64,000 nucleotides of DNA from an uncultured Nitrososphaerota archaeon (GCA_964497155.1 CAZCCB010000001.1:32766-96765); one strand, 5' to 3'. Shown: positions 31,179 through 54,788, counted from the first letter of the stretch. Notes: generated from the letters alone by a model not told the origin. A program made the numbers and translations.

Positions 31179-31958
31179 GTGAAGTATTTGGGAAAAATTT
31201 CGGTATCTAGAGTTAAAACTGGTATCCCAATTCTCGATAAGGCATTACCATTAGGTATTCCTAGAAATAATATGATTATGATTTTAGGTGAAGGTGGAAC
31301 AGGTAAATCAGTATTCATATTACAATTAATGTATGAAAGATTGAGGAGAAATGAACCATGTATTTTCATGTGTTTTGATGATGCACCAATAGCTATTGAG
31401 CAAAATGCAATGGGTTTCAATTGGAATTTAAGAGAATATGCGGATAAAGGATTATTAAGATTTATTGATTGCTATTCATTTAGAATGAAGCCGGATAAAA
31501 CTAGAATTCCCAAACATATAGTTTACATTGATAATCCAAGAGATTTACATCAATTAACACAAAGATTCACCGGTCTTATGGATGAAATGAATATGAATAA
31601 TGCCGGAGCTGTTTTCATAGATTCATTAACAGAATTAATGTCAATAACTGAATCTGCAATTGCATTAGAAACAATTAAGACTTGGAGAGCTGAAGCAGCT
31701 AAGGAAAGATTAGTAACTGTATTTGCAACATTTCATTTCGGAATTAAACCATTTGATGATTTAGAGCAAATACTTGAATATGTAGTTGATGGAATCATAG
31801 ATTTAAGATATGACCCTACGTTAATGCAAAAGGGTATTTTAATTAAACAATTTAGAGTTAGAAAGATGAAAGGAGCTCCACATCAAACAACATGGTTTAC
31901 ATTTACAGTTACAAATAATGGAATAGAAGAATTAACAATTAAATATGAGAAATCATAA
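31179..31958 (+). CDS. KaiC-like RecA-superfamily ATPase (single domain; FlaH/RadA-paralog-like)
   Basis: GIPILDKALPLGIPRNNMIMILGEGGTGKS Walker A in a KaiC/RadA-paralog context. 259 aa. Confidence 0.65.
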   Translation: MKYLGKISVSRVKTGIPILDKALPLGIPRNNMIMILGEGGTGKSVFILQLMYERLRRNEPCIFMCFDDAPIAIEQNAMGFNWNLREYADKGLLRFIDCYSFRMKPDKTRIPKHIVYIDNPRDLHQLTQRFTGLMDEMNMNNAGAVFIDSLTELMSITESAIALETIKTWRAEAAKERLVTVFATFHFGIKPFDDLEQILEYVVDGIIDLRYDPTLMQKGILIKQFRVRKMKGAPHQTTWFTFTVTNNGIEELTIKYEKS

Positions 31959-31961
31959 TTT

Positions 31962-32720
31962 CTAATATCTCACGGCATCTTTCCATAAATAGTTAAAGTA
32001 TATTCTTGCAAGCTTAACTAATTCACTATGATTAGACCATATTGCAATCAAGCTATTATCTTCTCCACCAAGTATAATTAATGCTTCCCGCTCATCAATA
32101 ATTAATCCTCCACCAAACATTTTCTCCCTAAACCTAACTTCAATTCCATAATTAACCAAGTCATTAAAACTTTCTCTTTGATCAATATTAACTAAAACTT
32201 TAATACTAATTCCTTTAAGGGCATAACTGAATAATCTATCTCTAATTAATCCATATATTAATTTAGATTTAAATGGAATTGCAACCTCAATTTCACTATT
32301 AACTCTATCTAAACTTTTTAAAACCCTATTTATAATTGAAGTAGCACCTCTCAAAATAATTACTTCAGGTTTTTCTTGAACGTAAATTCTATCATAAATT
32401 GGTTGAAGTTCATCAATCAAATTTCTCCCTAATTCACTAAATTCTCTTTCAATTTTACTCAATGATTTCTTTATACTTTCAATTGGAGGTTTTGCAAAAT
32501 ATTTTTTAGGCTTTCCTCCTTCAACATTAATCCAACCCTTCTCTCTAAGTTTAGATAATGCTTCATAAATTTTCGAATATGGTATCATCGCAATAGCACT
32601 TAATTCATTTGCAGTTAATGGTCCATATTCAATAAGTGCAATGTATGCTTTCGCCTCATAATTGCTTAAACCTAATTTTCTAAGTTTAATTAGAATTTCA
32701 TTTGAACTCATACAAATCAC
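31962..32720 (-). CDS. TrmB-family transcriptional regulator
   Basis: N-terminal wHTH LGLSNYEAKAYIALIEYGPLTANELSAIAMIPYSKIYEALSKLREKGWI is the classic TrmB signature. Confidence 0.8.
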   Translation of the reverse strand: MICMSSNEILIKLRKLGLSNYEAKAYIALIEYGPLTANELSAIAMIPYSKIYEALSKLREKGWINVEGGKPKKYFAKPPIESIKKSLSKIEREFSELGRNLIDELQPIYDRIYVQEKPEVIILRGATSIINRVLKSLDRVNSEIEVAIPFKSKLIYGLIRDRLFSYALKGISIKVLVNIDQRESFNDLVNYGIEVRFREKMFGGGLIIDEREALIILGGEDNSLIAIWSNHSELVKLARIYFNYLWKDAVRY

Positions 32721-32799: not shown

Positions 32800-35742
32800 T
32801 TGCAGGTGCTAAGAAAAACTAAAAGTTTATGCCCTAAATGTCTAAAAGTTATTGATGCAGAAGTATTCGTTGATGATAATAATGTTGTTAAAATAAGAAA
32901 AACATGTCCAGATCATGGTTATTTTGAAGACACCTATACTTTTTCAGATTATGAACTATATAAATGGGCCGAAAAATACGCTCACGATGGAAATGGAATT
33001 GAAAATCCATTAACAAAGGAAGTTAATGGATGCCCATTCGACTGCGGAATATGTCCAAATCATAAATCACATACAGTACTAGCCATAATTGATGTCACAA
33101 ATAGGTGCAATATGAAGTGCCCAGTATGTGTATCTGGGGACGAAATATTATTAGTCAAAAATTCACGTGAAGGTAAGTTTTTAACCTTAGAAGAAATTGC
33201 TACTTATGCTTTTAATACGATAAAGCCGATACCTCTATGTCCAAATGTCGACTATGTAAATGTTTTCCATCTCTCCATAATGGTTCCCATAGTAGAGGCA
33301 AATGGGAGAATTAAGTGGTCAAGGATAGTGAAAATTTACCGCAAAAGAAATGTTCCAAAACTACTGGAAATAGAAACCAATAGTGGTCGACGAATAAAGG
33401 TGACACATGATCATCCACTAATAATATTTAGGAATAATTGTATGCAAAAAATTCTTGCTAGAGAGTTAAAATTAGGAGATTACGTTTGCATAGCAGGTAA
33501 AATAGACTTAGGAGAGAGGAAACAAGTTAAAGAACTCGATATTCTCAAGCTTTTAGAGAAAGCCCCCTTGGAAGAACTTAATCAGGTTTATGTTAGAAAT
33601 CTCGGTTCATACTTAAAGTGGCTGAGGAGAAGTGTAGGAACTTACAAGAGAATTAGTGAAATTGCTGGGATAAATGTTTGGAATTATTGGTGGAGCACTA
33701 AAGGTTACATGCCATTAATTCACTTCTACAAATTAATTAGGAAATTTGGTTTACCATTAGAGTTTAAAAGAGAAATTAGGATAGGTGTGAAAGGCAAGAG
33801 ATATAATCTACCTGCGATACTACCAATAACAAGGGATTTTGCCCGCTTCCTAGCTCTATTTGTAGCTGAGGGTCACTTAGAGTATGTCCCTAAGCAAGCT
33901 TATAACGTAGTTATAACTGCAAAAGACGTTGAAGAAGTGCTTTCAATTCTTAAAAGGATAGGGCTTGACGCAAAAGTAGTGGATTACTCTAAGTATGGGA
34001 AAAGGCATAAAACTCCTCAAATAAAGGTATCAAATAAAATTTTAACCTTAGTTTTCCTCTATGGATTAAAGCTTGGGAGAACTGCAAGTGAAAAAAGATT
34101 GCCAAGCTTCACTCCATCATTGCCGATGGATATCATAAAGACAATTCTCTCCGAGTTATTTGACAGAGATGGATCAGTAACTCGAACTTCACGTCGTACT
34201 TGTGTAATCTATAAAACGACATCACGAATTCTTCTACAGCAACTACAATACCTGCTATCCATTTTCGGAATTTTCTCAAGAACTTACACTTCTTATTCCT
34301 CAAATAATCCGTTGGCAAAGCATGACGCCTATGAACTACAAATATCAACTAAGCCAGAGATCGAAAAACTCTTACGCTTGCTATGTAGTGAATCGAAAAC
34401 TGTCAAGAAGCTTAGAAAGCTACTCCCAAGTAAAGGTAAAACGACTTTTGAAAAACAGAGCGATATTATCTTAGATCGCGTGAAAAATATTAGGGAAATT
34501 GAGAATCTATCCAATACCGTCTACGATCTAGAAGTTCAACACTCCTCACATAACTTCCTCGTTGGAACAATTTTCGTTGGAAATTGCTTCGCTAATGCTG
34601 CAACTACAGGGTACGTATATGAGCCTTCATTAGAGCAAATTAGGAAAATGCTGATCACACTTAGATCAATAAAGCCAGTACCACCACCAGCAATACAGTT
34701 TAGCGGTGGAGAGCCAACTGTACGTAAGGACTTACCTGAAATAGTTAGGATGGCTAAGGAGGTTGGATTTGATCATGTTGAAGTTGATACTAATGGATTA
34801 GTTTTAGCTGAAAATATTGACTATTACAAAGCACTCCTAGATGCTGGAATGAGCACTATCTATTTGCAATTTGATGGATTAACTGACGATATTTACATTA
34901 AACTTAGAGGAATGCCATTAATGAAGAAGAAACTTAAGGTAATTGAAAATGCTAGAAAACTTGGTCATGAAAGTATAGTATTAGTAGTAACTTTAAGTAA
35001 AGGTGTAAATGATCATCAAATGGGAGACATAATTAAATTCGCAATGGAAAATTCAGATGTAATTAGATGTGTAAATGTTCAACCAATATCATTTAGTGGC
35101 AGAGCAACTCAACTTGAAAGACAACAATTACGAATTAATACGAGTGACTTTATGAAGCTAGTTGAAGAACAAACTAATGGATTAATAACTAGATGGGATT
35201 TCAGACCAGTACCATCAGTAGTCCCAATATCGAGAGCTGTAGGAGCACTTAAAGGAAAACGATATGTAGAATTTACTACAAGTCCCTTCTGTGGAGTAGC
35301 AACATTCTTAGTTAAAACAGATAAGGGTGAATGGGTTCCAATAACTAGGCTAGCTGATGTAGATAAATTCTTCAATGCAATGGAGAAAATTTATGAAGAT
35401 GCAATTAGAGGGAGAAAAGCTAGAGCATATATGAGAGCTATAGCAGCATTAAGGTACGTTAAATTTGGATTATTAAAAGATCTTGTATGGCCAGTAATTA
35501 AAGAGGGAAGCTATAAGGCGCTGGGAAGATTCATGAGAAGAGTAATTATGATCGGATGCATGCACTTCATGGATGTATGGAACTTCGATTTACAAAGAGT
35601 ACAAAGATGCGTAATACACTATGCACTTCCAGATGGAACTGTTAGACCATTCTGTTCACATAACAATATACATAGAGAACTAATAGAGAAAAAATTCAGC
35701 ATACCCTATGAAGAATGGCGAAGAATGGCAACATCTAAATAA
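32800..35742 (+). CDS. intein-containing radical SAM protein, COG1964-like; probable tetraether lipid synthase (Tes/GDGT-MAS) homolog
   Basis: N-terminal rubredoxin-like Cys pairs (CPKC...CPDHG) and CPFDCGICPNH. Radical SAM motif CNMKCPV-C is interrupted after CPV by an intein. After the intein the extein resumes CFANAAT...QFSGGEPT...VDTNG. The spliced product would be about 494 aa. Confidence 0.6.
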   Translation: MQVLRKTKSLCPKCLKVIDAEVFVDDNNVVKIRKTCPDHGYFEDTYTFSDYELYKWAEKYAHDGNGIENPLTKEVNGCPFDCGICPNHKSHTVLAIIDVTNRCNMKCPVCVSGDEILLVKNSREGKFLTLEEIATYAFNTIKPIPLCPNVDYVNVFHLSIMVPIVEANGRIKWSRIVKIYRKRNVPKLLEIETNSGRRIKVTHDHPLIIFRNNCMQKILARELKLGDYVCIAGKIDLGERKQVKELDILKLLEKAPLEELNQVYVRNLGSYLKWLRRSVGTYKRISEIAGINVWNYWWSTKGYMPLIHFYKLIRKFGLPLEFKREIRIGVKGKRYNLPAILPITRDFARFLALFVAEGHLEYVPKQAYNVVITAKDVEEVLSILKRIGLDAKVVDYSKYGKRHKTPQIKVSNKILTLVFLYGLKLGRTASEKRLPSFTPSLPMDIIKTILSELFDRDGSVTRTSRRTCVIYKTTSRILLQQLQYLLSIFGIFSRTYTSYSSNNPLAKHDAYELQISTKPEIEKLLRLLCSESKTVKKLRKLLPSKGKTTFEKQSDIILDRVKNIREIENLSNTVYDLEVQHSSHNFLVGTIFVGNCFANAATTGYVYEPSLEQIRKMLITLRSIKPVPPPAIQFSGGEPTVRKDLPEIVRMAKEVGFDHVEVDTNGLVLAENIDYYKALLDAGMSTIYLQFDGLTDDIYIKLRGMPLMKKKLKVIENARKLGHESIVLVVTLSKGVNDHQMGDIIKFAMENSDVIRCVNVQPISFSGRATQLERQQLRINTSDFMKLVEEQTNGLITRWDFRPVPSVVPISRAVGALKGKRYVEFTTSPFCGVATFLVKTDKGEWVPITRLADVDKFFNAMEKIYEDAIRGRKARAYMRAIAALRYVKFGLLKDLVWPVIKEGSYKALGRFMRRVIMIGCMHFMDVWNFDLQRVQRCVIHYALPDGTVRPFCSHNNIHRELIEKKFSIPYEEWRRMATSK
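33127..34584 (+). mobile_element. intein with LAGLIDADG homing endonuclease domain
   Basis: Block A CVSGDEILLVKN at the start. Two LAGLIDADG motifs (LALFVAEGHL, LSELFDRDGSV). Block F VYDLEVQHSSHNFLV and block G GTIFVGN followed by extein Cys+1. 486 aa, inserted in frame. Confidence 0.8.
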
Positions 35743-36196
35743 TAATCTCCTTCAATTTTATTCGGGGGCAATTTTGGTAACCGAAATTAGAGAATTTAAA
35801 TCTGTAAATGAACTCATAGACCACATAAATCATGAAATTAATAACATTACAGTAACAATAGAAAGCTATATGAAGAAAATTAATGAAATTAAAGATAAAA
35901 TTGAGAAGCTAAATAAAATATCAGATTATTTAACTAAAGTTTTAGGTAAAAGACCTGAAACAATTTCTCCTCAAGAAGTTAATTTTATGGGGCTAAAAAT
36001 TATAATAAATCCATCTCTCAAACATGAATTAGAAGTTTTTGAAGATATAATTAAAAAGTTAAATGATAAATTAATAGCACTACAAAAAATAAGAAAAGCA
36101 ATTGAATCTCTAGGATTAAGTGAATATGAAGAATTAGAATTAAAAGTTGTCATTATTGATGAATTACCCGTAAAATTAATGATTAAATTGGAGTGA
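35708..36196 (+). CDS. coiled-coil hypothetical protein at the head of the pilus-like locus
   Basis: 162-aa ORF overlapping the 3' end of the radical SAM gene by 35 nt and strongly alpha-helical/coiled-coil. The true start may be the internal Met MKKINEI. Confidence 0.35.
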   Translation: MKNGEEWQHLNNNLLQFYSGAILVTEIREFKSVNELIDHINHEINNITVTIESYMKKINEIKDKIEKLNKISDYLTKVLGKRPETISPQEVNFMGLKIIINPSLKHELEVFEDIIKKLNDKLIALQKIRKAIESLGLSEYEELELKVVIIDELPVKLMIKLE

Positions 36197-36213
36197 TAAT
36201 ATATGATACTTGA

Positions 36214-38019
36214 GTGGTGTTTAAATTGGGCTTCTCAGATTTTGCCTATAAATATTTCTTCGGTATTGGTAGAATCATACTTAAACTTCGTTCTTCACTT
36301 CCAGATGAAATTAGAAAAGCTGGAATGAATATTCACTATGAAGTTTATGCTTCGATAATTGGTTTCGTAATCTTTGTTCTACTAATTATTTTTTCTTCCT
36401 CTATCTCATTAATAGTTTACATTTACATAATGTATTTCAATTTCATACCATTAAATAAAGTTATATTATTAAGCTTAATGTTTACGGTGATATTAGTTCT
36501 CGTAATTTCAATAAGCACTATTTATCCTAAACTACTCGCAGCTAATAGAGTTTCTGCATATGATCAAGAAATTCCATATGCTGTGGCATATCTAAGTATA
36601 ATGACCTCTGGAGGTATGTCCCCCTATATTGCTATTGAGAGATTGGGTTTTGCTAAAATAGTCTTTAAAAAGTTTTCCCAGCTTGCAATGAGATTTACAG
36701 TTATGGTTAGAGCTATTGGATGGGATCCATTAACTGCACTCGAAGATATTGCACATAGAAATCCAAGCGGACTTTTCCATGATTTGGTTATGGGTTTCAT
36801 TGCAACATTAAGAGCTGGAGGTGATATTGCGGATTACTTAAATAAGAAGTCTAGAGATTTATTCAATATTCTCATTAATAAAATTAAGTCAGCTGGAGAA
36901 AGAATGAGCGTTATACTCGAATCATATTTAGCTGTAGCTTTCATATTGCTATTAACTCTAAACGCAATATATCTCGTAAGCTTATCAATTTCAGGACTAA
37001 GCTTACCTGGAATGAATGAAGCAACATTGTTTATCTCGTCATATATACTATTACCCTTCATGTCTGGATTAATGCTCTATTTATCAGATATAGTTCAGTA
37101 TAAGGAGCCTGGAATTGAATTAAGTCCATATAAAGTCTATTTAATGGTATCAATACCTATAATGATAATTCTAACACTATTCTTTGTTGCACCTTCCTTC
37201 TTGCCATTTAACCATCCAATAATCAGATATACAATGTATCTTTATGAACCATTGAAGATAATATTAAGTAAATTTAATATAAATGAAATTTATGTTCCTG
37301 GAATTGGTTTAAGTATTTCATTAGCAATCTCAACTATTCCTGCAGCAATTTCTGAACATGTTGTATGTGGAAAGCAGCGTAAAATTGCTAATGGAATAAT
37401 TAGATTTCTGAGGGATCTTGTTGAAATTAGAAAGACGGGACTATCACCTGAGAAATGCATAATTTCTCTTTCTAAAAGAGATTATGGAGTTTTCTCTAAG
37501 TATTTAAGGGAGATGGCTGTTCAAATTTCACTTGGATTTTCACTATCTAAAATTTATTCCAGAATTATTAGAAAAATTAAAGCTTGGAGAGCAAGAGTTT
37601 TCTTATACATTTTAACTGAGGCTATTGAAGTTGGCGGAGGTACTCCTGAAACATTAGAGAATATTGCTCATTTCGCGGAGCTTACTCAAGAATTGGAGCG
37701 TGAAAGAGCTTCAGCAATTAAAACTTTAATTATAATCCCATATTTAGGTGCAATAGTTATTGTTAGTTCAATAATTCTATTAACCTCATTTATGGCTACA
37801 CTTGCTACTGGTGTTTCAGCATATGTTATTGCTGCAAAAATGGTTATTCCAGCGGCAATAATTAATGTTTACTTTATGGGTCTAGTTGCTGGTAAAATAT
37901 CTACAGGTACTGTTTCAGCAGGCTTTAAGCATGCATCCTTACTATGTCTAATTTCACTATTAACTATGTTTTCATCACCATATTTAGCAACTATGATGAG
38001 GGGGATAACTGGTGGTTAA
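36214..38019 (+). CDS. TadC/FlaJ-like polytopic membrane protein of a type IV filament system (two T2SS-F domains)
   Basis: 601 aa with two repeats resembling T2SS protein F domains (AYDQEIPYAVAYLSIMTSGGMSPYIAIERL; ...ILTEAIEVGGGTPETLENIAHFAE), each followed by TM helices. Confidence 0.7.
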   Translation: MVFKLGFSDFAYKYFFGIGRIILKLRSSLPDEIRKAGMNIHYEVYASIIGFVIFVLLIIFSSSISLIVYIYIMYFNFIPLNKVILLSLMFTVILVLVISISTIYPKLLAANRVSAYDQEIPYAVAYLSIMTSGGMSPYIAIERLGFAKIVFKKFSQLAMRFTVMVRAIGWDPLTALEDIAHRNPSGLFHDLVMGFIATLRAGGDIADYLNKKSRDLFNILINKIKSAGERMSVILESYLAVAFILLLTLNAIYLVSLSISGLSLPGMNEATLFISSYILLPFMSGLMLYLSDIVQYKEPGIELSPYKVYLMVSIPIMIILTLFFVAPSFLPFNHPIIRYTMYLYEPLKIILSKFNINEIYVPGIGLSISLAISTIPAAISEHVVCGKQRKIANGIIRFLRDLVEIRKTGLSPEKCIISLSKRDYGVFSKYLREMAVQISLGFSLSKIYSRIIRKIKAWRARVFLYILTEAIEVGGGTPETLENIAHFAELTQELERERASAIKTLIIIPYLGAIVIVSSIILLTSFMATLATGVSAYVIAAKMVIPAAIINVYFMGLVAGKISTGTVSAGFKHASLLCLISLLTMFSSPYLATMMRGITGG

Positions 38020-38797
38020 GAAATTAATTGTTGGGCAAGCAGACGTTATTTCAATAGTTATTTTAACGTCGATCATTATCATATTAGCTATTTCAGTCTT
38101 AAATTATGCTGTTTTTTCACTTGAAAAAGCCGCTCAACAAGCTGAATTTGAAAAAGTCAAGAACATTTTAAGGGAAATGGCATTTTATACAGTTGATTCA
38201 GTAATTAATGGAATTAATTATGAAATATCATTTCCAACTAGAACTACTAGACTTAACTTCATAACTTCAAAATACAAGTTGAGATTAGAAATTTACGGTT
38301 TATCTAAGAAACCAATTGAACGTATTGTTGATGATGAAATTATTGAAGTAATATGCTTGGGTGGAGAATTTGTTTCTCCTTATGAGGAAGTTATTGTTGG
38401 TTTAAGAGGTAGAGTTGCATTTATTAATGATATTTATACAACGCCATTAGTTGTGGTAAATTATAATGAATTTTTCGGTAGAACAGCAGTATCACTAAAT
38501 TTTTCAAGACTATTAATTCAAGACTATAAATTCTCTAATAATATGATTTTAGATTTAACTTATATCGATATTTCATGGACTTCAAAGGGAGAGGTAAGTC
38601 TAGGTAAAATTAGCATTATTTACATTGGGTCAAGTAATGATGTAATTTATGAGGAATATGTAAAGAAACCCATTAAAGTCATGTTAAAACTATATTTGGA
38701 TTCTAAGTTGCTTGATGAAACCGTTATTGAAGTTAATGGGAAAACCTATTTTACTATTAGACTCGTAACTCATAAAGTTCAATATATATTGAGGTGA
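38012..38797 (+). CDS. pilin-like protein with N-terminal class III-type signal peptide (putative minor pilin/assembly protein)
   Basis: N-terminus MVKKLIVGQADVISIVILTSIIIILAISV: a basic residue, G-Q, then a hydrophobic helix. The rest is beta-rich. The start overlaps the TadC-like stop. Confidence 0.45.
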   Translation: MVKKLIVGQADVISIVILTSIIIILAISVLNYAVFSLEKAAQQAEFEKVKNILREMAFYTVDSVINGINYEISFPTRTTRLNFITSKYKLRLEIYGLSKKPIERIVDDEIIEVICLGGEFVSPYEEVIVGLRGRVAFINDIYTTPLVVVNYNEFFGRTAVSLNFSRLLIQDYKFSNNMILDLTYIDISWTSKGEVSLGKISIIYIGSSNDVIYEEYVKKPIKVMLKLYLDSKLLDETVIEVNGKTYFTIRLVTHKVQYILR

Positions 38798-38801
38798 TTT
38801 C

Positions 38802-39272
38802 ATGCCGAAATCGCCAGTAACAACAATTATTGGATTAACAATGCTATCAATAATATTCATGATAATACTTCAATATTCAATAACCTTAACTCTAACCTAT
38901 GAGGAGAGAATTGCTGAAAAAGAATTGAAAGTCATTGCAAATAGTATTGTAAGTCAAATAATGGATGCATTAACTCTAGCTGAAAACCTAAATGAAAATG
39001 GAGAAGTCCAAGTTAAATTAGAAATACCTGAGGAATGCAGTTTAGGTCATTATGAAATAACATTAACTAATCAAGATAATACTCCAGTAATTATATTAAA
39101 ACCGATTACTAGACCAATACCTAAAATAACTTTGGAACTCCTAATTTCTAAGAGGAAAGTTTCAATAACAACTACAGTTGTTTATAGTGGAGCTAAATGG
39201 AATTACATTAAAGTCAGAAATGTAAATGGAATATTCCATGTTCAATTAGTCCATATTGGTGGTGAAACTTGA
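38802..39272 (+). CDS. pilin-like protein with N-terminal hydrophobic helix
   Basis: MPKSPVTTIIGLTMLSIIFMIILQYS N-terminal helix, then a beta-rich domain of about 130 aa. Translationally coupled to its neighbours. Confidence 0.4.
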   Translation: MPKSPVTTIIGLTMLSIIFMIILQYSITLTLTYEERIAEKELKVIANSIVSQIMDALTLAENLNENGEVQVKLEIPEECSLGHYEITLTNQDNTPVIILKPITRPIPKITLELLISKRKVSITTTVVYSGAKWNYIKVRNVNGIFHVQLVHIGGET

Positions 39273-40342
39273 AGGAACCAATCGAATTTTCAATAGCTTC
39301 AATGACAATAATACTCATATTACTATTAACTGTAAATCTATTAAACTTAATATATAGTGTGGAATTTAAAGTCAATATTAAAGCTAAATCTCTAATGAAT
39401 AAATTAGAATTAACAATAGGATCACCATCAAATTGGGATGAATCAATAATTTTAGGAGGCAAAATAGTAGATTTTGGATTAAGCTCATTAAATGGATTAT
39501 CATTAGATAAGGATAAAGTTAACTTAATAACATATAATTATATTGGTTCAATAAAATTTTTACGTAAAAATCCATTATACATAGATCCATTAGCCTTTAA
39601 AAAACTATTAAATATTAAGAATAAAGAGTTTAGATTGGATTTTAAACCAGCATTAAATATTACAATTAAAGTTTCTAGAATTAAGCTAAAGTATAGAATT
39701 GAGGTTAAAATATATGATTTAAATGGAAAAGATTTAACTTCAAAAGCTTCAATTACATATCTAATAGTTTATAGTTATCGTTTAGAAACTAAATATGCCA
39801 TCTATATTAATGGGCCACCATCTATAAGTGTTAGCGGATCAATCAGAGCTTTAGCTGTAATTGCAAATGTCAATGGAATAAAATCAATAGCATATTGGCT
39901 CTATAAGTTCATTCCATTTGGAATTATAATAGGTTCATACATAATTTCTCCTATTCCGCTTTCTTTAGCTGAGGGAACATTGCTCTTTTGCGAATATATG
40001 GGTAAAGACTTTAAGTGTAATGTGAAGTTAAGATTTATAGACCGTATTGGTGAAATCTTCATTTATAAGTTTTATAATGATAATTGGAGTAAAGTAGTTA
40101 GTCATAATATTGATGATAAGGTTGTAATGCTAATTGTAAATACAATTAGATTTAAAGTATTACTCTCAATTTTCCTTGCATATTCAGCTCCAATATACTA
40201 TGATAATAATTTCTCAGGTTTGCCAAAATTAAGTTATGGGAATCTCAATCTACCAGTCGAGTATTCAGTCGAGAGAAGATTTGTATTAATTGGAGAAATG
40301 AATTATGAAATTAAGCTTTACTTATGGAGGATTGAGAAATGA
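39269..40342 (+). CDS. pilin-like/pilus-associated protein with N-terminal hydrophobic helix
   Basis: MKEPIEFSIASMTIILILLLTVNLL N-terminus, then a beta-rich domain. 4-nt overlap (ATGA) with the upstream gene. Confidence 0.4.
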   Translation: MKEPIEFSIASMTIILILLLTVNLLNLIYSVEFKVNIKAKSLMNKLELTIGSPSNWDESIILGGKIVDFGLSSLNGLSLDKDKVNLITYNYIGSIKFLRKNPLYIDPLAFKKLLNIKNKEFRLDFKPALNITIKVSRIKLKYRIEVKIYDLNGKDLTSKASITYLIVYSYRLETKYAIYINGPPSISVSGSIRALAVIANVNGIKSIAYWLYKFIPFGIIIGSYIISPIPLSLAEGTLLFCEYMGKDFKCNVKLRFIDRIGEIFIYKFYNDNWSKVVSHNIDDKVVMLIVNTIRFKVLLSIFLAYSAPIYYDNNFSGLPKLSYGNLNLPVEYSVERRFVLIGEMNYEIKLYLWRIEK

Positions 40343-40737
40343 GAAGAGGACAAATATTCCTAGTCAGTGCATTTGCTGCAGTAATTATCGTATTAATGTT
40401 TATTTCAGTAGCAATGCAAATTGGAGAATTAACTACAATTAGAACTGAAAATAGGAAATTAATTGATAATGGCTTACTTGCTATTCAAGCAATTATCAAG
40501 TCAGGAGCTATAGAAAAGCTAATTGAAGATAGAGATGATATTCCAATTAGAAATTTAATGGAAACGCTATTGCCTTCAAACACTTACTATTCTTTAACAT
40601 TAACTTGTGATTCCAATAAAATTGAAATTTACAATAAACCTAATTTTGAACCTAAAGTAACAATTAAATATATTTATACTAGTGTTGATTTAAAAACAAT
40701 TTTCACAATAACTTTGAGATTATCGATTGGTGGTTGA
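40339..40737 (+). CDS. pilin-like protein with canonical class III signal peptide
   Basis: MRRGQIFLVSAFAAVIIVLMFISVAM has the (K/R)G|Q prepilin peptidase motif. 132 aa. Confidence 0.55.
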   Translation: MRRGQIFLVSAFAAVIIVLMFISVAMQIGELTTIRTENRKLIDNGLLAIQAIIKSGAIEKLIEDRDDIPIRNLMETLLPSNTYYSLTLTCDSNKIEIYNKPNFEPKVTIKYIYTSVDLKTIFTITLRLSIGG

Positions 40738-41455
40738 ATTGAAAGGTCAATTTACAATATTATCTGCAGTAACATTAATGATTGCTATAATAACAATTTC
40801 AATAATAATTGCCAATGCAAATTTGAGATTGAGAAGGTATCAGGAATATTCATTACCACCAATTATAATTAATATTCTTCAAGATTATTCAAGAATGTTA
40901 TCAGCATCACTTTCTAAGGCTACTAATGAAGCGTACTCAGTAATTTATCTTAAGAGAGGAAATATTAATTATGCAGTTAAGAAAGCTGAAGATATTTCAA
41001 AGAATTTCGTTGATAAATGGATTAAATCATTTATTGATGCTTATGCTGGATTGGGAGTAAATCTCAATGTTAAAGTTAAGTTAGATTTAAGGTGGAGTAA
41101 GGGTACTTCATGGGCTTCTATATTAACTGGAGAATTAATTGTAGAAATTCCATCAATTGGCTTTAAATTAAATAGAATTATTAAGCAAGCTGGCATATCA
41201 ATTGAAAGAGTTTTTATTAGTAAGATTGGAAAACAGTACTATTTGCATGTTGTTGGGATAAGTTTGGATGAGGGGAGAGGTATTCCACTCAAAATTGAAA
41301 AATTAATTATTGATGGTAGAGAAGTTAATTTTTATCATTACTATCTTGGTGGTGGATTAAATAGGTATCTAATTAAAGTGCGTGAAATTCATAGATATGT
41401 TGAGGGTTATTTTGAATATAACAATATAATTATTCGAGTTTACCTGGAAATTTAA
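40727..41455 (+). CDS. pilin-like protein with canonical class III signal peptide
   Basis: MVVELKGQFTILSAVTLMIAIITISIIIANA has the KG|Q motif followed by a hydrophobic helix. Confidence 0.55.
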   Translation: MVVELKGQFTILSAVTLMIAIITISIIIANANLRLRRYQEYSLPPIIINILQDYSRMLSASLSKATNEAYSVIYLKRGNINYAVKKAEDISKNFVDKWIKSFIDAYAGLGVNLNVKVKLDLRWSKGTSWASILTGELIVEIPSIGFKLNRIIKQAGISIERVFISKIGKQYYLHVVGISLDEGRGIPLKIEKLIIDGREVNFYHYYLGGGLNRYLIKVREIHRYVEGYFEYNNIIIRVYLEI

Positions 41456-42588
41456 GTTTTAACTTCAACTTCAAATGGAATTCTCAATCTCAATTCTGCT
41501 AATATCCATCTAGCTTCATCAATTAATTTCTTCTTAACGGCTTTTACATTTGGACGTCTAAAGCTGAATCCTTTCTTCCTAATTTTTACCTTAAATCTTA
41601 TGATATCATCTGATGCATCAACATTTAAATCTTCAAGTTCATATCCGAGAACATCTAAGACTTCCAGAAAATATTCATTAGCCTTAGCTATAATTTTATC
41701 AATTTTTTCCTCAATTTCTTTTCTCTTAATTTTCTCCTCTACTTTTTCTTCAGTTATGGGTGCTTTTGTAATTATTTTTCCCTTTAATTCCTCTTCCAAT
41801 CTTAAAATTGGTATCTTTATTTTTGCTTCTTCAAGTACTTTTATTGGGTCAATTTCAACTTCGTAGATTAAAATTTCAAATGAACCATATCCAGTTAGAG
41901 CTCTAGGATTAAGCATTATTTTTAGGGCTTCAATTCCAGTGATAGTGCTGCCATCAGCTTTATAGATTACTGCAGCTAATACTTCTCTATTTCTAATTAG
42001 AATTTCAAGACTTCTCCATATTTCCGATTCACTAATTGTAGCTATAATGTATCTTGTAGAATTGGTACTAGCTTCAATTTCATTGGCTATTACTGAAGAT
42101 AAGTTAGTCATATTTATTGCCATTTGAGCTCTAACATCTAAGTGAACGCTATTTACTATAAATAATGTTTTAATGGGAATTATGGCTGCAAGTCTAACAC
42201 TATACTCTTCAATTTTATTATGAATATTAATTGGAATTTTCTTTTCCCCTAACAATTTTATTTTAGCTGTTGGGACAATATCTAAATCACTATCTATTTC
42301 ATCTACTGTAAGTTCATAAACTTCAATAAATCCAACAGCTTCCCTAAGAATTTCATTGAGCTCATTCCAAGCGGCATCACCTTCTAGGTGAGCATCATTT
42401 CTTAATAGAGCTAGAACGGGACTACCTTCTTTAAAATCAACATAAACTTCATAGCTTCTACCACTAGATATTATTAAGCCTTGAATTCTAACATTGGCCT
42501 TATTATTCCTAATATCCTCTATTAAATCTGATAGAGATTCCTCAGCTAAATTAATCATATCTACTAGTTTACCTCTACTTTTAAGCAA
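41452..42588 (-). CDS. hypothetical soluble protein co-transcribed downstream of the pilus ATPase (UpsX/accessory-like position)
   Basis: 378 aa with no TM segment and a charged coiled-coil stretch (EEKVEEKIKRKEIEEKIDKI). Lies 79 nt downstream of the ATPase gene on the same strand. Confidence 0.4.
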   Translation of the reverse strand: MLKSRGKLVDMINLAEESLSDLIEDIRNNKANVRIQGLIISSGRSYEVYVDFKEGSPVLALLRNDAHLEGDAAWNELNEILREAVGFIEVYELTVDEIDSDLDIVPTAKIKLLGEKKIPINIHNKIEEYSVRLAAIIPIKTLFIVNSVHLDVRAQMAINMTNLSSVIANEIEASTNSTRYIIATISESEIWRSLEILIRNREVLAAVIYKADGSTITGIEALKIMLNPRALTGYGSFEILIYEVEIDPIKVLEEAKIKIPILRLEEELKGKIITKAPITEEKVEEKIKRKEIEEKIDKIIAKANEYFLEVLDVLGYELEDLNVDASDDIIRFKVKIRKKGFSFRRPNVKAVKKKLIDEARWILAELRLRIPFEVEVKT

Positions 42589-42667
42589 TTATGTATTAAC
42601 CTCCAATTATTCTCACGTCTATCATATGTCAAATCTAATATATAAAGCATTTAAAAGTGACGCAAAA

Positions 42668-44254
42668 TTATTTAACATAAATTTTACTTAACTTGCTAGT
42701 CCCTTTTACAACCATTTCATAAATACTTTTTGGATCATAGTAATATTTGAAAATATATTTGCTTACCTCCCATGGATCATAAATCTGTCTCTCCTTAAGC
42801 CATCTTAAAACTTCAGCTCTCCTAAATATTTCATTCTTTAATTCGGTAATAGTTCTACCAGTCTTCATACTAATTTCCTTTAAAAGAATTGAATTATCTA
42901 AATTTACTTCATGAACATCCTTAACTGGATTCCATTTAGAAATAATTCTATAATCATTATAATCAGCTATTTCCTGAACAATACTAACTCTCCTAGCAAC
43001 TTTTACTTTACCTTCACTAACTCTAGTAATGACTCTTTGAATATGCATGAAGATATTCATTAATTTAATATATGGTGGTGGAATATTCATTGGAGGTGAA
43101 GTTAATCTCTTAATTGCATAATCAAGGGTTTCAGCATGAATGGTTGATAATCCTCCATGTCCTGTTGCCATTGCCTGAAATAATACGTATGCTTCTTCAC
43201 CTCTAACTTCACCGACAATTAAGTAGTCTGGTCTATATCTTAAGCTTAATTTAACTAAATCGAAGAGTTCAATTTCACCAGCCTTAACACCAATAGTATA
43301 TACTGGTCTAACTGTGAGTTGAACCCAATTTTCATGAGGTAAATTTAATTCCGGCGTATCTTCAACAGTAACTATTTTCATTCCAGGCTTAATAAATAGG
43401 CTTAAAGCATTGAGAAGAGTGGTTTTACCTGCACCAGTCCCACCTGCAATCATTAATGTCCTACCATATTCAAGCATAAGCCAAATATAAGCTGCAATAA
43501 GTTCATTAATAACACCAGTTGCAATAAGTTCAACTGGTGAAAATGGCTTCTCCCTAAACTTTCTAATAGTAAATGTTGGACCCATAGGACTAATTTCAGT
43601 ACCAAATGTAGCTGCAAATCTATGCTTTCCGGGAAGCATTGCATCGAGGACGGGGTAAGCCAAACTAATATGCTTACCAGCCATATGAGCTAATTTCAAT
43701 ATAAATTCATTTAAAGTAGTTAAATCCCTAAAAACGATATTTGTAGGAATGCTTTCATAACGTCTATGCCAAACATAGATAGGCTTACCAACACCATCAC
43801 AACTAATATCCTCAATATATGGATCACGCATTAAAGGCTCAATAGGACCATAACCAAGTAAGTCACGTTCAATATAATAGAAAATCTTAGCTCTCCTAGC
43901 ACCAACCAAACCTAATTTACCACGATATTTTTCAGATAAACGTCTTAATTCACTGAAAATATAGCTCCTAAAATCTTCAAAAACTTCAGCTGGCTGAAGC
44001 TCCTCAATAAGTAATTCAACAAGCTTATCAAAAACCTCCCTTTCTTCATCACTCAACTTATATTCATCAACATAGTAAAGTAAGCTTCCCTCCTTAAGAA
44101 ACCTAATAATATCAACTCTAACAAATGGTTCATAAACCCAATAGCTCTCTATAACTTCAAATTCTCCTTCTAAAGGTAAATATTCGATATTACTCCAATC
44201 CATACCAATTTTACTTTCATATCTACTTTTACTGGCTTTAATCACATATTTCAC
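42668..44254 (-). CDS. type IV filament assembly ATPase (FlaI/TadA/GspE-VirB11 family)
   Basis: Walker A IAGGTGAGKTTLLNALSLFI and Walker B/Asp box (VTVEDTPEL). His box region and conserved N-terminal domain are present. 528 aa. Confidence 0.8.
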   Translation of the reverse strand: MKYVIKASKSRYESKIGMDWSNIEYLPLEGEFEVIESYWVYEPFVRVDIIRFLKEGSLLYYVDEYKLSDEEREVFDKLVELLIEELQPAEVFEDFRSYIFSELRRLSEKYRGKLGLVGARRAKIFYYIERDLLGYGPIEPLMRDPYIEDISCDGVGKPIYVWHRRYESIPTNIVFRDLTTLNEFILKLAHMAGKHISLAYPVLDAMLPGKHRFAATFGTEISPMGPTFTIRKFREKPFSPVELIATGVINELIAAYIWLMLEYGRTLMIAGGTGAGKTTLLNALSLFIKPGMKIVTVEDTPELNLPHENWVQLTVRPVYTIGVKAGEIELFDLVKLSLRYRPDYLIVGEVRGEEAYVLFQAMATGHGGLSTIHAETLDYAIKRLTSPPMNIPPPYIKLMNIFMHIQRVITRVSEGKVKVARRVSIVQEIADYNDYRIISKWNPVKDVHEVNLDNSILLKEISMKTGRTITELKNEIFRRAEVLRWLKERQIYDPWEVSKYIFKYYYDPKSIYEMVVKGTSKLSKIYVK

Positions 44255-44337
44255 CCATAAACAAAATAGTAAACGAATATAAATAATTTAACATCAAAAA
44301 ATTATACTTTAAAAAAATTTATAAGGAAGCAATACAA

Positions 44338-44901
44338 ATGTTCGACGGTGGGAGAATGAATAGGAGAGGAGTCTCTCCTGTAATAGCTACAGTAATAATA
44401 GTAGCAGTAGCAATTGCAATAACAGTTGCAGTAGCATTCTGGATGACAGGTATAATAGGAACATTTACCCGCCATGAAGAATTAAAATTAACAGGATACG
44501 TATTACAGGCAAATACTGATTTAGAGAGATCAGGCGATGGAAAGAATGATTGGGCATTAATAATTAAAGTAAAGAATACTGGAACAACAGATGCAACCCT
44601 AACAGAATTAATGATAAATGGAAAACCATTCAGTACATATTCATACTCATACGATTGCAATCAAGGAAAACTAAAATCAACATACATTCCAGGACTACCA
44701 TCAGGTTCAGGAGTATATAAGGTAGAGAAAGATTCAGATTGGAAGCCTGGAACAAACACCATAAGAGTATCATCAGGAACAGAAGTAACCCTAATAATAC
44801 CAATCACAACTAGAGATGGATTCACTCCTGGAACAAGTATTGAAGTTAAAGTTGTATCTGCATCCGGAATCGAATATCCAAAGACATTGGTTCTCCCATA
44901 A
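44338..44901 (+). CDS. pilin (candidate major subunit) with class III signal peptide
   Basis: MFDGGRMNRRGVSPVIATVIIVAVAIAITVAVAFW has RRG followed by an archaellin/pilin-type hydrophobic N-terminal helix. The mature part is beta-rich and Thr/Ser-rich. The true start may be the second Met. Confidence 0.65.
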   Translation: MFDGGRMNRRGVSPVIATVIIVAVAIAITVAVAFWMTGIIGTFTRHEELKLTGYVLQANTDLERSGDGKNDWALIIKVKNTGTTDATLTELMINGKPFSTYSYSYDCNQGKLKSTYIPGLPSGSGVYKVEKDSDWKPGTNTIRVSSGTEVTLIIPITTRDGFTPGTSIEVKVVSASGIEYPKTLVLP

Positions 44902-44945
44902 ACAAGTTTGGTAATTGAAGTAGCTTCTGACATCACTTAAGCTCC

Positions 44946-44982
44946 CACCTTTTTTGCATATCACATAAAACAATGTGCAAAA
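44946..44982. terminator. T-run plus imperfect palindrome downstream of the pilin gene (possible terminator/operator)
   Basis: TTTTTTGCATAT-cacataaaaca-ATGTGCAAAAAAAA. This is a 6-bp stem flanked by a T-run on the 5' side and an A-run on the 3' side, 45 nt after the pilin stop. Confidence 0.3.
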
Positions 44983-45217: not shown

Positions 45218-45412
45218 ATGCCAACCAAGAGTAGTGCCCGTAAATCGCAGGTAATTGCGGTTAGAGTAACTCCTAAGATAAAGGAAATTATAGTACAAGT
45301 AGCTAGAAGTGAGGGTCTAGACGTATCGGAGTGGATTAGACATTTAATTGTTAGTGAATTAAGAAGAAGAGGTATATTATCCCCATTACCGACAATCACT
45401 GAAATTAGGTAA
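45218..45412 (+). CDS. ribbon-helix-helix-like small DNA-binding protein
   Basis: VIAVRVTPKIKEIIVQVARSEGLDVSEWIRHLIVSELRR shows a beta-strand plus two helices pattern typical of RHH/CopG proteins. Directly upstream of a KaiC-like ATPase. Confidence 0.5.
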   Translation: MPTKSSARKSQVIAVRVTPKIKEIIVQVARSEGLDVSEWIRHLIVSELRRRGILSPLPTITEIR

Positions 45413-45436: not shown

Positions 45437-46561
45437 TTGTATGAGAATACAGAGCGAGTATTAACAGGTATTCCAGAATTTGATAGATTGGTTGGAGGAG
45501 GATTTCCGAAGGGAAGCATAATATTATTGGCTGGAGATCCTGGTGCTGGTAAAACAATTTTCTCGGCAACTTTTCTATATAAGGGTGCTACCGAATTTAA
45601 TGAGCCAGGAGTATACGTATGCTTTGCTGAAGATAGGGAAACTTTCCTTAACAATATGAGTAAGCTCGGCATGGATTTTAAGAGATTAATGTGGGAGAGA
45701 AAAATTGATGTCCTAGATTTATCTATTGGAACAGAATTTGAAGTCCAGACAATTTTAAATAAAATACTTAATAGCCTAAATAGTTTAAAGGCTAAGAGAC
45801 TTGTAATAGATTCAATAACAGCAATACTAGTTTCACTGAAAAGCGAAGTTGAGAGAAGATATCTTGCAAGGCTATTATATAAAATTATTAAACGTGTAAA
45901 TTGTACTGCAATCCTAATTGCAGATAAACCATGGAGGCAAAATATTATTGGTTCAGAAATACTTGAATTTGTTTCAGATGGAATAATTATAATGGAAACA
46001 TATTATGATGCCAGCAATTTTCTTAGAAGGAGAATTCAAATTTTAAAGATGAGAGGAACTGGGCATTCATTAGAAGCTCATGAATATGTTATAACCAGTA
46101 GTGGAATAAAATTTCTATTAAAAGTTGAAGAGGCATACCAATATGTCTTAAAAAAGGAGTCAATTCATAAAATATTGGAACCATTAGTTAATGAGGGATG
46201 GCAATATAAGGCTCCAGCTAAAATAACTGGTAGAAGTGGATTAAAACATGAATTTACATTAGCATTATGGAATCCTGGAAATCCATCAAAGGAAGATTCT
46301 CCAGATGTCATTGTAGACGTTTACATATCATCAACTGAAAGAGAAATAAATGAAATTCCAATATTAAAAACATTTACAAAAGAATTTGATATAAGAAATA
46401 ACAATAAGGAGATTGGAAAATATATCATAGCTGTCCCATCAGTAAATAGCTTTGGAAAATCATTATCGAAACAATTCAACATAAAAATTCTAGAGGCCAA
46501 TTCAGTGAAATATGTTGAATCAAAGTTAAGGGAAATCGCTAACGAACTAATATTTCACTAA
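45437..46561 (+). CDS. KaiC-like RecA-superfamily ATPase with C-terminal extension
   Basis: GIPEFDRLVGGGFPKGSIILLAGDPGAGKTIFSATF Walker A. 374 aa, with the KaiC/RadA-paralog domain followed by a domain of about 130 aa. Confidence 0.65.
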   Translation: MYENTERVLTGIPEFDRLVGGGFPKGSIILLAGDPGAGKTIFSATFLYKGATEFNEPGVYVCFAEDRETFLNNMSKLGMDFKRLMWERKIDVLDLSIGTEFEVQTILNKILNSLNSLKAKRLVIDSITAILVSLKSEVERRYLARLLYKIIKRVNCTAILIADKPWRQNIIGSEILEFVSDGIIIMETYYDASNFLRRRIQILKMRGTGHSLEAHEYVITSSGIKFLLKVEEAYQYVLKKESIHKILEPLVNEGWQYKAPAKITGRSGLKHEFTLALWNPGNPSKEDSPDVIVDVYISSTEREINEIPILKTFTKEFDIRNNNKEIGKYIIAVPSVNSFGKSLSKQFNIKILEANSVKYVESKLREIANELIFH

Positions 46562-49508: not shown

Positions 49509-50087
49509 TTACTTACTCATGAGGAAGTATATTAATCCTTTAAATGATAATACAATACTAATAACAGCTATAACTAAACATAGTAAACTCATTATATTAA
49601 AGTAGCTTGGTTTTAAATAATACTTAACTTCAATATCTAAATCGATAATTTGATTATTAGTGGAATTTAATGCTAAAACAATTTTCGATAAAAATGATGA
49701 TAACCTAATTGTTCCAGTGCTAATGTTATTGGTAAAATTTAATCGTTTCAATTTAAAACTAATATTCTCTTCACTGAAAAATATTAAGAAAACATTTAAT
49801 CTTGAATTATTTCTTAATCTTACTTTATAATCTAGCTTGATGACATAGCCATTAGGTATATTGGTAATGTTATGATATTTTAACTTCTCATTTACTATTA
49901 AATTATTAAATTCATATTTCTCAGTAATATCGTAACTATAAATTATTAAGGTAATGGATAAAATTAGTGAGATAAAAAGTAGGGTTATACCAATCTTAAG
50001 ATAGGTTCTTGATGCTCTCTTAATTTGATACTTTAAATTGTTTTCTATATAATCTACTTTATTTAATGTACATCCAACAAGATACAT
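49509..50087 (-). CDS. hypothetical membrane-anchored extracellular protein
   Basis: N-terminal TM segment, several N-x-S/T sequons and a C-terminal TM segment. Confidence 0.35.
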   Translation of the reverse strand: MYLVGCTLNKVDYIENNLKYQIKRASRTYLKIGITLLFISLILSITLIIYSYDITEKYEFNNLIVNEKLKYHNITNIPNGYVIKLDYKVRLRNNSRLNVFLIFFSEENISFKLKRLNFTNNISTGTIRLSSFLSKIVLALNSTNNQIIDLDIEVKYYLKPSYFNIMSLLCLVIAVISIVLSFKGLIYFLMSK

Positions 50088-51078: not shown

Positions 51079-51082
51079 TTAA

Positions 51083-52069: not shown

Positions 52070-52078
52070 TCTCTCACC

Positions 52079-54611: not shown

Positions 54612-54788
54612 ACCTTACCCTTCAACCATAATTTAATTTAGATAATTACTCCCTTCTTAAAGGAATAGTAAGTGGAATATAAAATTATTGTAGTTTACTA
54701 AGTAGATTAACTTAAACTTTTGCTCTAATCTTTAATAATATTTATAAGTATTAAATACATATGCTCTTAATAGCGAGGTATTGATATT

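Follow-up and report, generated by a model that had tools for sequence, protein, structure and literature searches.

Gene organization of the pilus locus

A gene cluster, probably complete, for the assembly of a type IV pilus was identified in a 64,000-nucleotide stretch of DNA (the window) from an uncultured Nitrososphaerota archaeon (GCA_964497155.1, CAZCCB010000001.1:32766-96765). The cluster contains the genes of a secretion ATPase, a TadC-type platform protein, an ordered cassette of five proteins with an N-terminal hydrophobic helix, a putative soluble partner of the ATPase and a PilA-type pilin, and by its sequence it belongs to a kind of locus already catalogued as the complex form of type IV pilus (T4P) subclade 4A. 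The window is AT-rich (approximately 31% G+C). All coordinates refer to the whole 64-kb window, and gene bounds are those of the longest possible open reading frames (ORFs).

The gene of a soluble coiled-coil protein of 162 amino acids (aa) (35708-36196, plus strand) adjoins, on its upstream side, the gene of the TadC/FlaJ-type polytopic platform protein (601 aa; 36214-38019, plus strand). The five cassette genes follow on the same strand at 38012-38797, 38802-39272, 39269-40342, 40339-40737 and 40727-41455 (positions 1 to 5) and encode proteins of 261, 156, 357, 132 and 242 aa, respectively. They take the places of arCOG08836, arCOG03511, arCOG08837, arCOG10426 and arCOG10615, respectively; these labels rest on the place of each gene in a published table for Desulfurococcus fermentans and not on arCOG profiles. 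A FlaI/PilB/TadA-family secretion ATPase (528 aa; 42668-44254) and a soluble ATPase partner (378 aa; 41452-42588), whose gene lies downstream of that of the ATPase, are encoded on the minus strand. On the other side of the ATPase, the plus strand carries the gene of the PilA-type pilin (187 aa; 44338-44901), the candidate major subunit.

An initial annotation had described this region as a type IV filament (TFF) locus in which a TadC/FlaJ-like gene is followed by five ORFs that overlap by 4-11 nucleotides (nt). The filament assignment is borne out by profile matches to T2SSE, T2SSF and TIGR02537. The gene order also stands, except that the start given for the block, 35708, is that of the coiled-coil gene, and TadC begins at 36214. 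When the longest ORFs are taken, overlaps are present at four of the five junctions (8 nt between TadC and the 261-aa gene, 4 nt at both the 156/357 and 357/132 junctions, and 11 nt between the 132- and 242-aa genes), whereas the 261- and 156-aa genes are separated by a 4-nt spacer. The TadC start lies 18 nt past the stop of the coiled-coil gene. In the gene calls of an identical contig, TadC and the 242-aa gene start 12 nt further downstream and the coiled-coil protein is called as 140 aa. The stop codon of the 378-aa gene overlaps that of the convergent 242-aa gene, and an AT-rich spacer of 84 nt separates the ATPase start from the divergent pilin gene. The tight packing suggests that the plus-strand genes form one operon, of which the coiled-coil gene is probably the first.

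Related loci (47 in all, L001-L047) were gathered by scanning genomes and metagenomes and by looking up the encoding contigs, and ORFs were called in all of them and clustered by BLASTP and iterative hidden Markov model (HMM) searches. The genes are considered real and not chance ORFs because their order and sizes recur in independent loci, in which TadC is 37-68% identical. A location on a mobile element was considered and rejected: related metagenome-assembled genomes (MAGs) show synteny in the flanking housekeeping block, which comprises an Lhr helicase, a dCTP deaminase, a KaiC-like protein, a TrmB regulator and the tetraether lipid synthase Tes. The locus is therefore chromosomal. No RNA family was found in an Rfam scan of the window.

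Core assembly machinery and candidate major pilin

The ATPase matches the Pfam family T2SSE (E 3.6e-33). Its best solved relative is the GspE-like ATPase of Archaeoglobus fulgidus (2oap, 346 bits), followed by FlaI (4ii7, 262 bits). In BLAST comparisons, it is 82% identical to the ATPase of L001, 66% to that of L047, 63% to that of Staphylothermus hellenicus and 62% to that of Desulfurococcus mucosus. A FlaI/TadA-family ATPase converging on the cassette together with a soluble partner, as the initial annotation had it, is confirmed by the T2SSE match and by the lack of any transmembrane (TM) segment in the 378-aa protein.

Several orthologues of the ATPase from metagenomic loci contain inteins (L002/L013/L015, 1042 aa; L018/L021/L022, 1056-1067 aa; L038:3128-7771, 1547 aa), which were confirmed with the Pfam families Intein_splicing and LAGLIDADG_3. 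Two insertion sites are used, which correspond to approximately residues 278 and 364 in the window ATPase, and L038 has both; the window ATPase itself has no intein.

TadC matches Pfam T2SSF in two stretches (E 1.3e-23) and has approximately 11 hydrophobic segments. By BLAST, it is 68% identical to TadC of L001 and 50-56% identical to proteins of Methanomethylicota/Methanomethylicia MAGs, its closest named relatives. Identities with Desulfurococcales are 39-49% overall, including 42% with S. hellenicus and 41% with D. mucosus. The coiled-coil protein has no TM segment and only weak coiled-coil-type Pfam matches. Its homologues, 16 ORFs of the related loci, adjoin TadC, including in L001, L010, L047 and the L002/L014 type.

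The 187-aa pilin, which the initial annotation had placed beyond the ATPase with an RRG| motif (the bar marks the putative cleavage point), passes TIGR02537 with 23.9 bits against a cut-off of 20. It reads RRG|VSPVIATV, a class III-type motif by sequence, and has an N-terminal hydrophobic helix. The true start is likely to be the ATG at 44356, giving MNRRG|VSPV, i.e. MNRRG|VSPVIATVIIVAVAIAI. This ATG is preceded by the Shine-Dalgarno-like sequence GGTGGGAG, and a run of T follows the stop codon of the gene. The N-terminal 40 residues are near-invariant among the pilins encoded beside related loci. Among solved structures, the 187-aa pilin is closest to AapB, from the Aap pilus of Sulfolobus acidocaldarius (8q30; 36 bits over approximately 85 residues, E 5.7e-8), a similarity that may be called moderate. 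The Arch_flagellin model gives 17.6 bits against a cut-off of 29.5.

The five-gene cassette

All five cassette proteins have a single hydrophobic segment within the first 25 residues, as had been claimed for them. The motifs MRRG|Q (position 4) and ELKG|Q (position 5) are present as the initial annotation quoted them, and the alignment of each family across approximately 20 loci adds position 1 as a third. Class III-type cleavage motifs are thus carried by three of the five cassette families (positions 1, 4 and 5) and by the 187-aa pilin. Homology of the individual positions was assessed by iterative HMM searches and by hhalign against Desulfurococcales and Desulfurococcaceae groups.

The position 1 protein belongs to a PilA-related, pilin-like family in which [KR][GA]|xS(E/Q)V is conserved among the orthologues. 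In iterative HMM searches, this family merges with PilA-type pilins, and its HMM recruits the 250- and 258-aa proteins of D. mucosus and the 253-aa protein of S. hellenicus encoded after TadC. Pfam gives weak matches to Pilin_N and DUF7289. Identities among position 1 proteins of different loci are 21-48%.

The position 2 protein consists of an N-terminal anchor helix with a short body. Its N-terminus is conserved from the first possible codon, MP(S/H/K)x..(V/I)T.LIG, and no leader is recognizable. It scores 25.4 bits with DUF7266 against a cut-off of 27.6, and 6 of the 14 family members match this domain. Searches with the family HMM pick up the N-terminal portion of an 862-aa surface protein of D. 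mucosus. In that protein, the module is joined to DUF2341, and position 2 is its short form.

The position 3 protein has an N-terminal helix and a beta-rich body. The N-terminus, MKE.IE(Y/F/L), is conserved and has no G/A cleavage site. Its HMM recruits the 369-aa protein of D. mucosus, and comparison with the Desulfurococcaceae group by hhalign gave a probability of 96.5% (E 8.8e-10, 236 columns). A word-indexed homologue search with the 357-aa protein returned 2 clusters only, a near-empty result explained by the low identity of the cassette proteins to those of S. hellenicus (approximately 20-25%). The AlphaFold (AF2) model of this protein, built on a 2-sequence alignment, is unusable, with a mean predicted local distance difference test (pLDDT) score of 40.5.

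The position 4 protein is pilin-like, and [KR][G/S]|Q occurs in nearly all of the 12 orthologues examined, the exception being IG|Q. Comparison with the Desulfurococcales group (128-134 aa) by hhalign gave a probability of 71% (E 3.6e-5), which suggests homology of position 4 across the two lineages. The position 5 protein is also pilin-like and has [KR][GA]|(Q/D/G) at the same place in all loci. Lengths at this position range from 214 to 1360 aa across loci; its globular part is variable and is enlarged elsewhere.

A Pfam scan of 32 proteins of positions 3-5 showed no consistent family, and searches of PDB sequences with the position 1 and position 2 family profiles returned nothing meaningful. 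The pseudopilin families of Pfam had no match among the cassette proteins scanned.

In other genomes, cassette members are expanded to 578-1360 aa, the expanded member differing by lineage (L034:14717-18799; L022:11642-13378; L046:14582-16447; L045:13521-16109). Where position 1 or 2 is expanded, the addition is DUF2341 or a lectin-like domain; position 1 of L022 (578 aa), for example, has DUF2341 and a lectin-like barrel. An expanded position 5 has no recognizable domain. The window cassette consists of minimal modules only.

The putative soluble ATPase partner

The 378-aa protein has no Pfam match and is very rare: an exhaustive profile search of 1.84 billion proteins yielded 15 representatives, and a word-indexed search of 5.8 billion proteins yielded 7 clusters. 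Its AF2 model, based on a 7-sequence alignment (pLDDT 76.8), predicts two similar alpha/beta domains (approximately residues 1-105 and 120-255), a charged disordered linker (256-286) and a C-terminal alpha-beta-beta-alpha-beta domain. Comparison with the 250-270-aa neighbours of the Desulfurococcales ATPases by hhalign gave a probability of 96.8% (E 2.3e-10) in an alignment spanning the second alpha/beta domain and the C-terminal domain. By this alignment, the 378-aa protein is a domain-duplicated homologue of the proteins in the arCOG08835 position. In Table S4 of Makarova et al. (PMC4858521), arCOG08835 is listed as "Uncharacterized protein" without a T4P flag. The protein is probably a partner of the motor, because its gene is kept beside that of the ATPase through rearrangement and also in L047, which has no cassette; the family looks like a conserved, previously unrecognized motor partner.

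Distant relatives of the N-domain match DUF2226 above the cut-off (33.9 bits) and DUF4388/PATAN below it (E 1e-3, 19.5 against 25 bits). A literature search on DUF2226 found nothing, and fold searches with the model returned generic alpha/beta plaits only. The PATAN regulators that bind the cyanobacterial PilB motor (bioRxiv 10.1101/2021.06.11.447907) are comparable in being soluble proteins that are encoded with, or act on, a T4P extension ATPase. However, the 378-aa protein lacks a receiver domain, the link to PATAN is indirect and the fold searches do not support it, and the connection is a lead only.

Related loci and their distribution

The order of TadC followed by proteins of approximately 260, 160, 350, 130 and at least 220 aa recurs in three groups of loci: the closest relatives (L001/L007, L006, L008 and L010), the Desulfurococcaceae-like loci L017-L025, and the distant loci L027 and L034-L036, in which TadC is 37-41% identical. 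Two cultured species have this order as well. After TadC, S. hellenicus encodes proteins of 253, 169, 382, 128 and 621 aa, and D. mucosus proteins of 250, 258, 862, 369, 129 and 438 aa. Global identities between the window and S. hellenicus are 54% for the ATPase, 43% for TadC and approximately 20-25% for the cassette proteins.

A conserved block lies upstream of the ATPase in the Desulfurococcales-type loci L003, L016, L018, L021, L022, L038 and L046. This block encodes a KaiC-like protein (233-261 aa), a protein of unknown function (448-494 aa), an arCOG08835-like protein (257-269 aa) and an ACT+V4R protein (282-302 aa), and is followed by the ATPase. The ACT/V4R and 448-494-aa proteins have no counterpart in the window.

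Four loci of a Desulfurococcales MAG type (L002, L013, L014 and L015) contain a coiled-coil gene, an opposite-strand gene for a 160-aa protein, TadC, the ATPase and a second coiled-coil paralogue, and no cassette; a neighbouring protein of 266-285 aa in these loci shows weak similarity (hhalign 44.6%) to the 378-aa protein. In two other loci (L034:18809-21616 and L039:14065-16770), proteins of approximately 900 aa with peptidase M6 and CARDB domains are encoded directly downstream of the pilin-like genes.

Neighbouring genes

Two KaiC-like ATPases are encoded near the locus. The first (374 aa; 45437-46561, plus strand; Pfam KaiC E 3.7e-61) has a single domain with a C-terminal extension, and the second (259 aa; 31179-31958, plus strand) matches Pfam KaiC with E 3e-35. 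The ArlH model has a cut-off of 215 bits, of which the two reach 40-67 (67 for the 374-aa protein). Genes for KaiC-like proteins are also found close to the ATPase or TadC in L001, L010 and L047 and in the Desulfurococcales loci L003, L016, L021, L022 and L046. The 374-aa protein is a possible regulator, its link to the pilus being inferred. The position of the 259-aa gene is conserved in L001, L010 and L047; the genes of a TrmB-family transcription regulator (31962-32720, minus strand) and of Tes separate it from TadC, and it is uncertain whether its product is part of the pilus system. The 374-aa gene is preceded, at a distance of 24 nt, by a ribbon-helix-helix (RHH)/NikA-like ORF (64 aa; 45218-45412, plus strand; NikA-like E 1.6e-7), and the two may form a small regulator-ATPase pair beside the pilin gene.

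Tes (980 aa; 32800-35742, plus strand) matches NCBIfam NF045702 with 592.6 bits against a cut-off of 450 and is split by an intein with a LAGLIDADG homing endonuclease. No intein is present in the Tes orthologues of L001 (493 aa), L010 (537 aa) or L047 (484 aa). At 90% identity, this radical-SAM protein falls into one cluster with RLE49677.1 from a "Candidatus Methanomethylicota archaeon" MAG, a lineage that NCBI now includes in Thermoproteota. This upstream radical-SAM gene was considered as an equivalent of AapX and rejected, as it encodes Tes and does not adjoin TadC in L047.

An oligopeptide-type ATP-binding cassette (ABC) transporter operon and a divergent gene for a 905-aa protein occupy 50059-57506, approximately 5 kb downstream. 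The operon encodes two ATPases and two permeases and has no evident link to the pilus. The 905-aa protein, the presumed binding protein of the transporter, has an ordinary N-terminal hydrophobic signal and not a class III signal of the [KR][GA] type.

Proposed function and alternative explanations

The locus is best read as a complete 4A complex-form T4P assembly system, which probably produces a pilus for adhesion, with minor pilins that prime it or form its tip. A PibD/FlaK-type peptidase encoded elsewhere would cleave the 187-aa pilin and the proteins of positions 1, 4 and 5 after [KR][GA], and the hexameric ATPase, docked on TadC, would lift the subunits out of the membrane. The cassette proteins would be low-abundance minor pilins that nucleate assembly and end at the tip, after which the AapB-like pilin would polymerize into the shaft. 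The proteins of positions 2 and 3 have no recognizable cleavage site and may stay membrane-anchored at the base, outside the filament. On the cytoplasmic side, the 378-aa protein, the coiled-coil protein and the KaiC-like ATPases may bind or regulate the motor. The filament would most likely serve adhesion to surfaces or to other cells, and a tip-adhesin role fits the lectin-like and DUF2341 expansions of cassette members (position 1, 2 or 5) in other genomes. Adhesion, secretion and DNA uptake had all been offered as functions in the initial annotation; the first is the most likely, and nothing in the locus supports the other two.

Several points weigh against this reading. The locus type is experimentally uncharacterized, and the pilin fold of the cassette proteins is putative. 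A canonical class III motif is missing from positions 2 and 3, and position 1 of the window reads KKLIVG|QADV, a non-canonical site with V and not K/R at -2. Comparison of position 5 with Desulfurococcales by hhalign showed no significant similarity beyond the N-terminal helix. No prepilin peptidase was found in the 64-kb window, in which two multi-TM ORFs (11428-11964 and 60303-61148) had no NCBIfam match. In L047 (Methanomethylicia MAG JANXEO010000001, 10001-14628), TadC, 50% identical to that of the window by BLAST, is followed by the convergent 378-aa partner and ATPase without a cassette, and the cassette is therefore dispensable or encoded elsewhere. Finally, it is arCOG08836, the family of position 1, and not the AapB-like pilin that is labelled "Major pilin" of clade 4A in Table S1 of Makarova et al. 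(PMC4858521).

That label leads to an alternative in which the 261-aa position 1 protein is the major subunit and the AapB-like pilin forms a separate Aap-like filament, either sharing the ATPase and TadC or using another pair. The position 1 family is PilA-related, and D. mucosus and D. fermentans each have two copies of its gene, duplication being frequent among major pilin genes. Makarova et al. also argue that ATPase/TadC pairs serve several pilin sets (PMC4858521). However, the position 1 proteins diverge fast, and some carry large DUF2341 or lectin insertions, as in L022, which would be odd for a shaft subunit, whereas pilins of the 187-aa type have a near-invariant N-terminal helix and adjoin the machinery in most loci. 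This arrangement is judged unlikely.

Some or all of the cassette proteins, those of positions 2 and 3 especially, might instead stay out of the filament and form a membrane-anchored base, scaffold or stator in the pseudo-periplasm, in the manner of ArlF and ArlG, which would serve rotation or retraction and not priming. In favour of this, both of these positions have conserved N-termini that run from the first codon without a [KR][GA] site. An analogy with the archaellum is drawn by Makarova et al. (PMC4858521), and KaiC/ArlH-like ATPases are conserved neighbours. This scheme is improbable: no cassette protein resembles ArlF, ArlG or Arch_flagellin (no Pfam or NCBIfam match at E<0.1), the KaiC-like proteins fall far below the ArlH cut-off, and ArlX and ArlCDE are absent.

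The pseudopilin set of the bacterial type II secretion system (T2SS) comprises the proteins G-H-I-J-K, and five pilin-like genes after a platform gene recall this set. A short pseudopilus, or a bindosome-like structure for the secretion or display of substrate-binding proteins, could be envisaged on these grounds; an oligopeptide ABC transporter is encoded nearby, and the use of TFF machines to display binding proteins is proposed to be wide by Sivabalasarma and Albers in a 2026 preprint (10.64898/2026.04.22.720090). Yet the BasE and BasF models score far under their cut-offs, no cassette protein matches a pseudopilin family, no binding protein with a class III signal is encoded in the locus, the signal of the 905-aa protein being an ordinary one, and an AapB-like shaft pilin is present. 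Such a structure is very unlikely.

A pilus for DNA exchange or DNA uptake, like Ups or competence pili, is hardly to be expected, as its favourable points are the general precedent of TFF systems in DNA exchange and an Lhr-type helicase gene approximately 5 kb upstream, whereas UpsA and UpsF are far under cut-off, no UpsX, Ced, ComEC or ComEA-type gene is present in the locus, and the helicase belongs to the housekeeping block that is syntenic with or without the cassette. None of these alternatives has positive support beyond analogy.

The adhesive pilus reading can be taken further. The cassette might be the archaeal counterpart of the bacterial priming/tip complex, of unprecedented composition, with three processed members and an unprocessed, membrane-anchored base formed by positions 2 and 3, and, together with the arCOG08835/378-aa partner, might define a distinct and more elaborate class of pilus machine common to Desulfurococcales and Methanomethylicia. 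This extension is doubtful at present.

To our knowledge, no experiments have been done on an archaeal T4P that has a dedicated set of minor pilins, and the characterized crenarchaeal systems, Aap and Ups, are simple forms. The cassette, recorded in 2016 from approximately seven Desulfurococcales genomes, is a module of five genes in a fixed, position-specific order, which also occurs in Methanomethylicota-like and other uncultured Thermoproteota. A soluble protein that had no assignment in 2016 accompanies the ATPase, even in rearranged loci. These features provide pointers for choosing an archaeal system in which pilus priming, tip adhesins and motor regulation can be studied. Nothing is overturned, as the existence and likely role of such loci had already been proposed.

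Comparison with known systems

Loci of this kind were listed by Makarova, Koonin and Albers in 2016 as the complex form of T4P subclade 4A (PMC4858521), with a cassette composed of arCOG08836, arCOG03511, arCOG08837, arCOG10426 and arCOG10615. The accessory genes were proposed to be a minor-pilin set (PMC4858521, section 13). In the 2026 preprint, 4A is described by accessory genes downstream of the platform gene together with a PilY-like adhesin (10.64898/2026.04.22.720090). The entry for D. fermentans in Table S4 (PMC4858521) begins with arCOG08835 (249 aa), the ATPase on the minus strand and TadC on the plus strand; TadC is followed by two copies of arCOG08836 (254 aa), arCOG03511 (870 aa), arCOG08837 (367 aa), arCOG10426 (129 aa) and arCOG10615 (140 + 272 aa). 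The D. mucosus and S. hellenicus loci were equated with this entry by identical architecture and sizes. The entry has the D. mucosus architecture recovered here and matches the 261/156/357/132/242-aa series of the window position by position. The suggestion in the initial annotation that the filament is undescribed therefore fails, the same cassette and orthologous ATPase and TadC being present in cultured Desulfurococcales and listed as 4A.

The window and the Desulfurococcales 4A loci share an orthologous ATPase (62-63% identity) and TadC (41-42%), the same ordered cassette immediately after TadC, with a matching series of sizes and matching N-terminal motifs, a homologous soluble protein beside the ATPase, and KaiC-like and PilA-type pilin genes nearby. 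They differ in layout: the Desulfurococcales ATPase is divergent and upstream of TadC, whereas the ATPase and its partner in the window lie downstream and converge on the cassette. The partner has 378 aa with a duplicated N-domain in the window, compared with 250-270 aa. In Desulfurococcus, position 2 carries a DUF2341 adhesin body, whereas the window has a minimal 156-aa module without DUF2341. The large arCOG03511-type adhesin is variable within the 4A type, since S. hellenicus also has the short form only (169 aa). The window further differs in having a coiled-coil gene before TadC, a Methanomethylicia-type feature, in lacking an ACT/V4R protein, and in its host, which is of a Methanomethylicota-like lineage.

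The S. acidocaldarius Aap system (aapA-aapX-aapE-aapF-aapB), which was placed in ATPase subclade 4A by Makarova et al. (PMC4858521), is the closest characterized system. It shares with the window an AapB-like pilin, a single ATPase and a single platform protein. However, Aap requires the Fe-S protein AapX, which the window lacks, and has no five-gene cassette, 378-aa partner or coiled-coil protein. The statement of the initial annotation that the locus is not a canonical aap operon is correct, there being no AapX and the sole Fe-S or radical-SAM gene in the vicinity being Tes.

Ups, Bas and the archaellum are set apart by NCBIfam scores far under the cut-offs, in agreement with what had been said of the archaellum and ups operons. 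The scores for Ups are 56.9 bits against 400 (UpsF) and 31.2 against 130 (UpsA), and no UpsX-like gene is present at the locus; those for Bas are 257.6 against 1000 (BasE) and 51.5 against 1300 (BasF). The archaellum has a homologous ATPase and platform protein, and KaiC/ArlH-like ATPases are encoded near the locus. However, the window proteins reach only 365 bits against 550 (ArlI), 33 against 400 (ArlJ) and 40-67 against 215 (ArlH), and no ArlF, ArlG, ArlX, ArlCDE or archaellin was found in scans of the window.

The minor pilins of bacterial T4aP and T2SS (FimU-PilVWXE and GspH-I-J-K, respectively) resemble the cassette in being sets of 4-5 co-transcribed, poorly conserved pilin-like proteins encoded beside the machinery, with a large member to which an adhesin is often fused or linked and with proposed roles in priming and tip capping; the analogy is one of function only. 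There is no detectable sequence similarity, two of the five cassette proteins lack a cleavage motif, gene order and sizes are different, and the window locus has no secretin or PilMNOP. On sequence grounds, the locus is a member of a catalogued, experimentally unstudied kind; its layout is rearranged and its putative motor partner has a duplicated domain.

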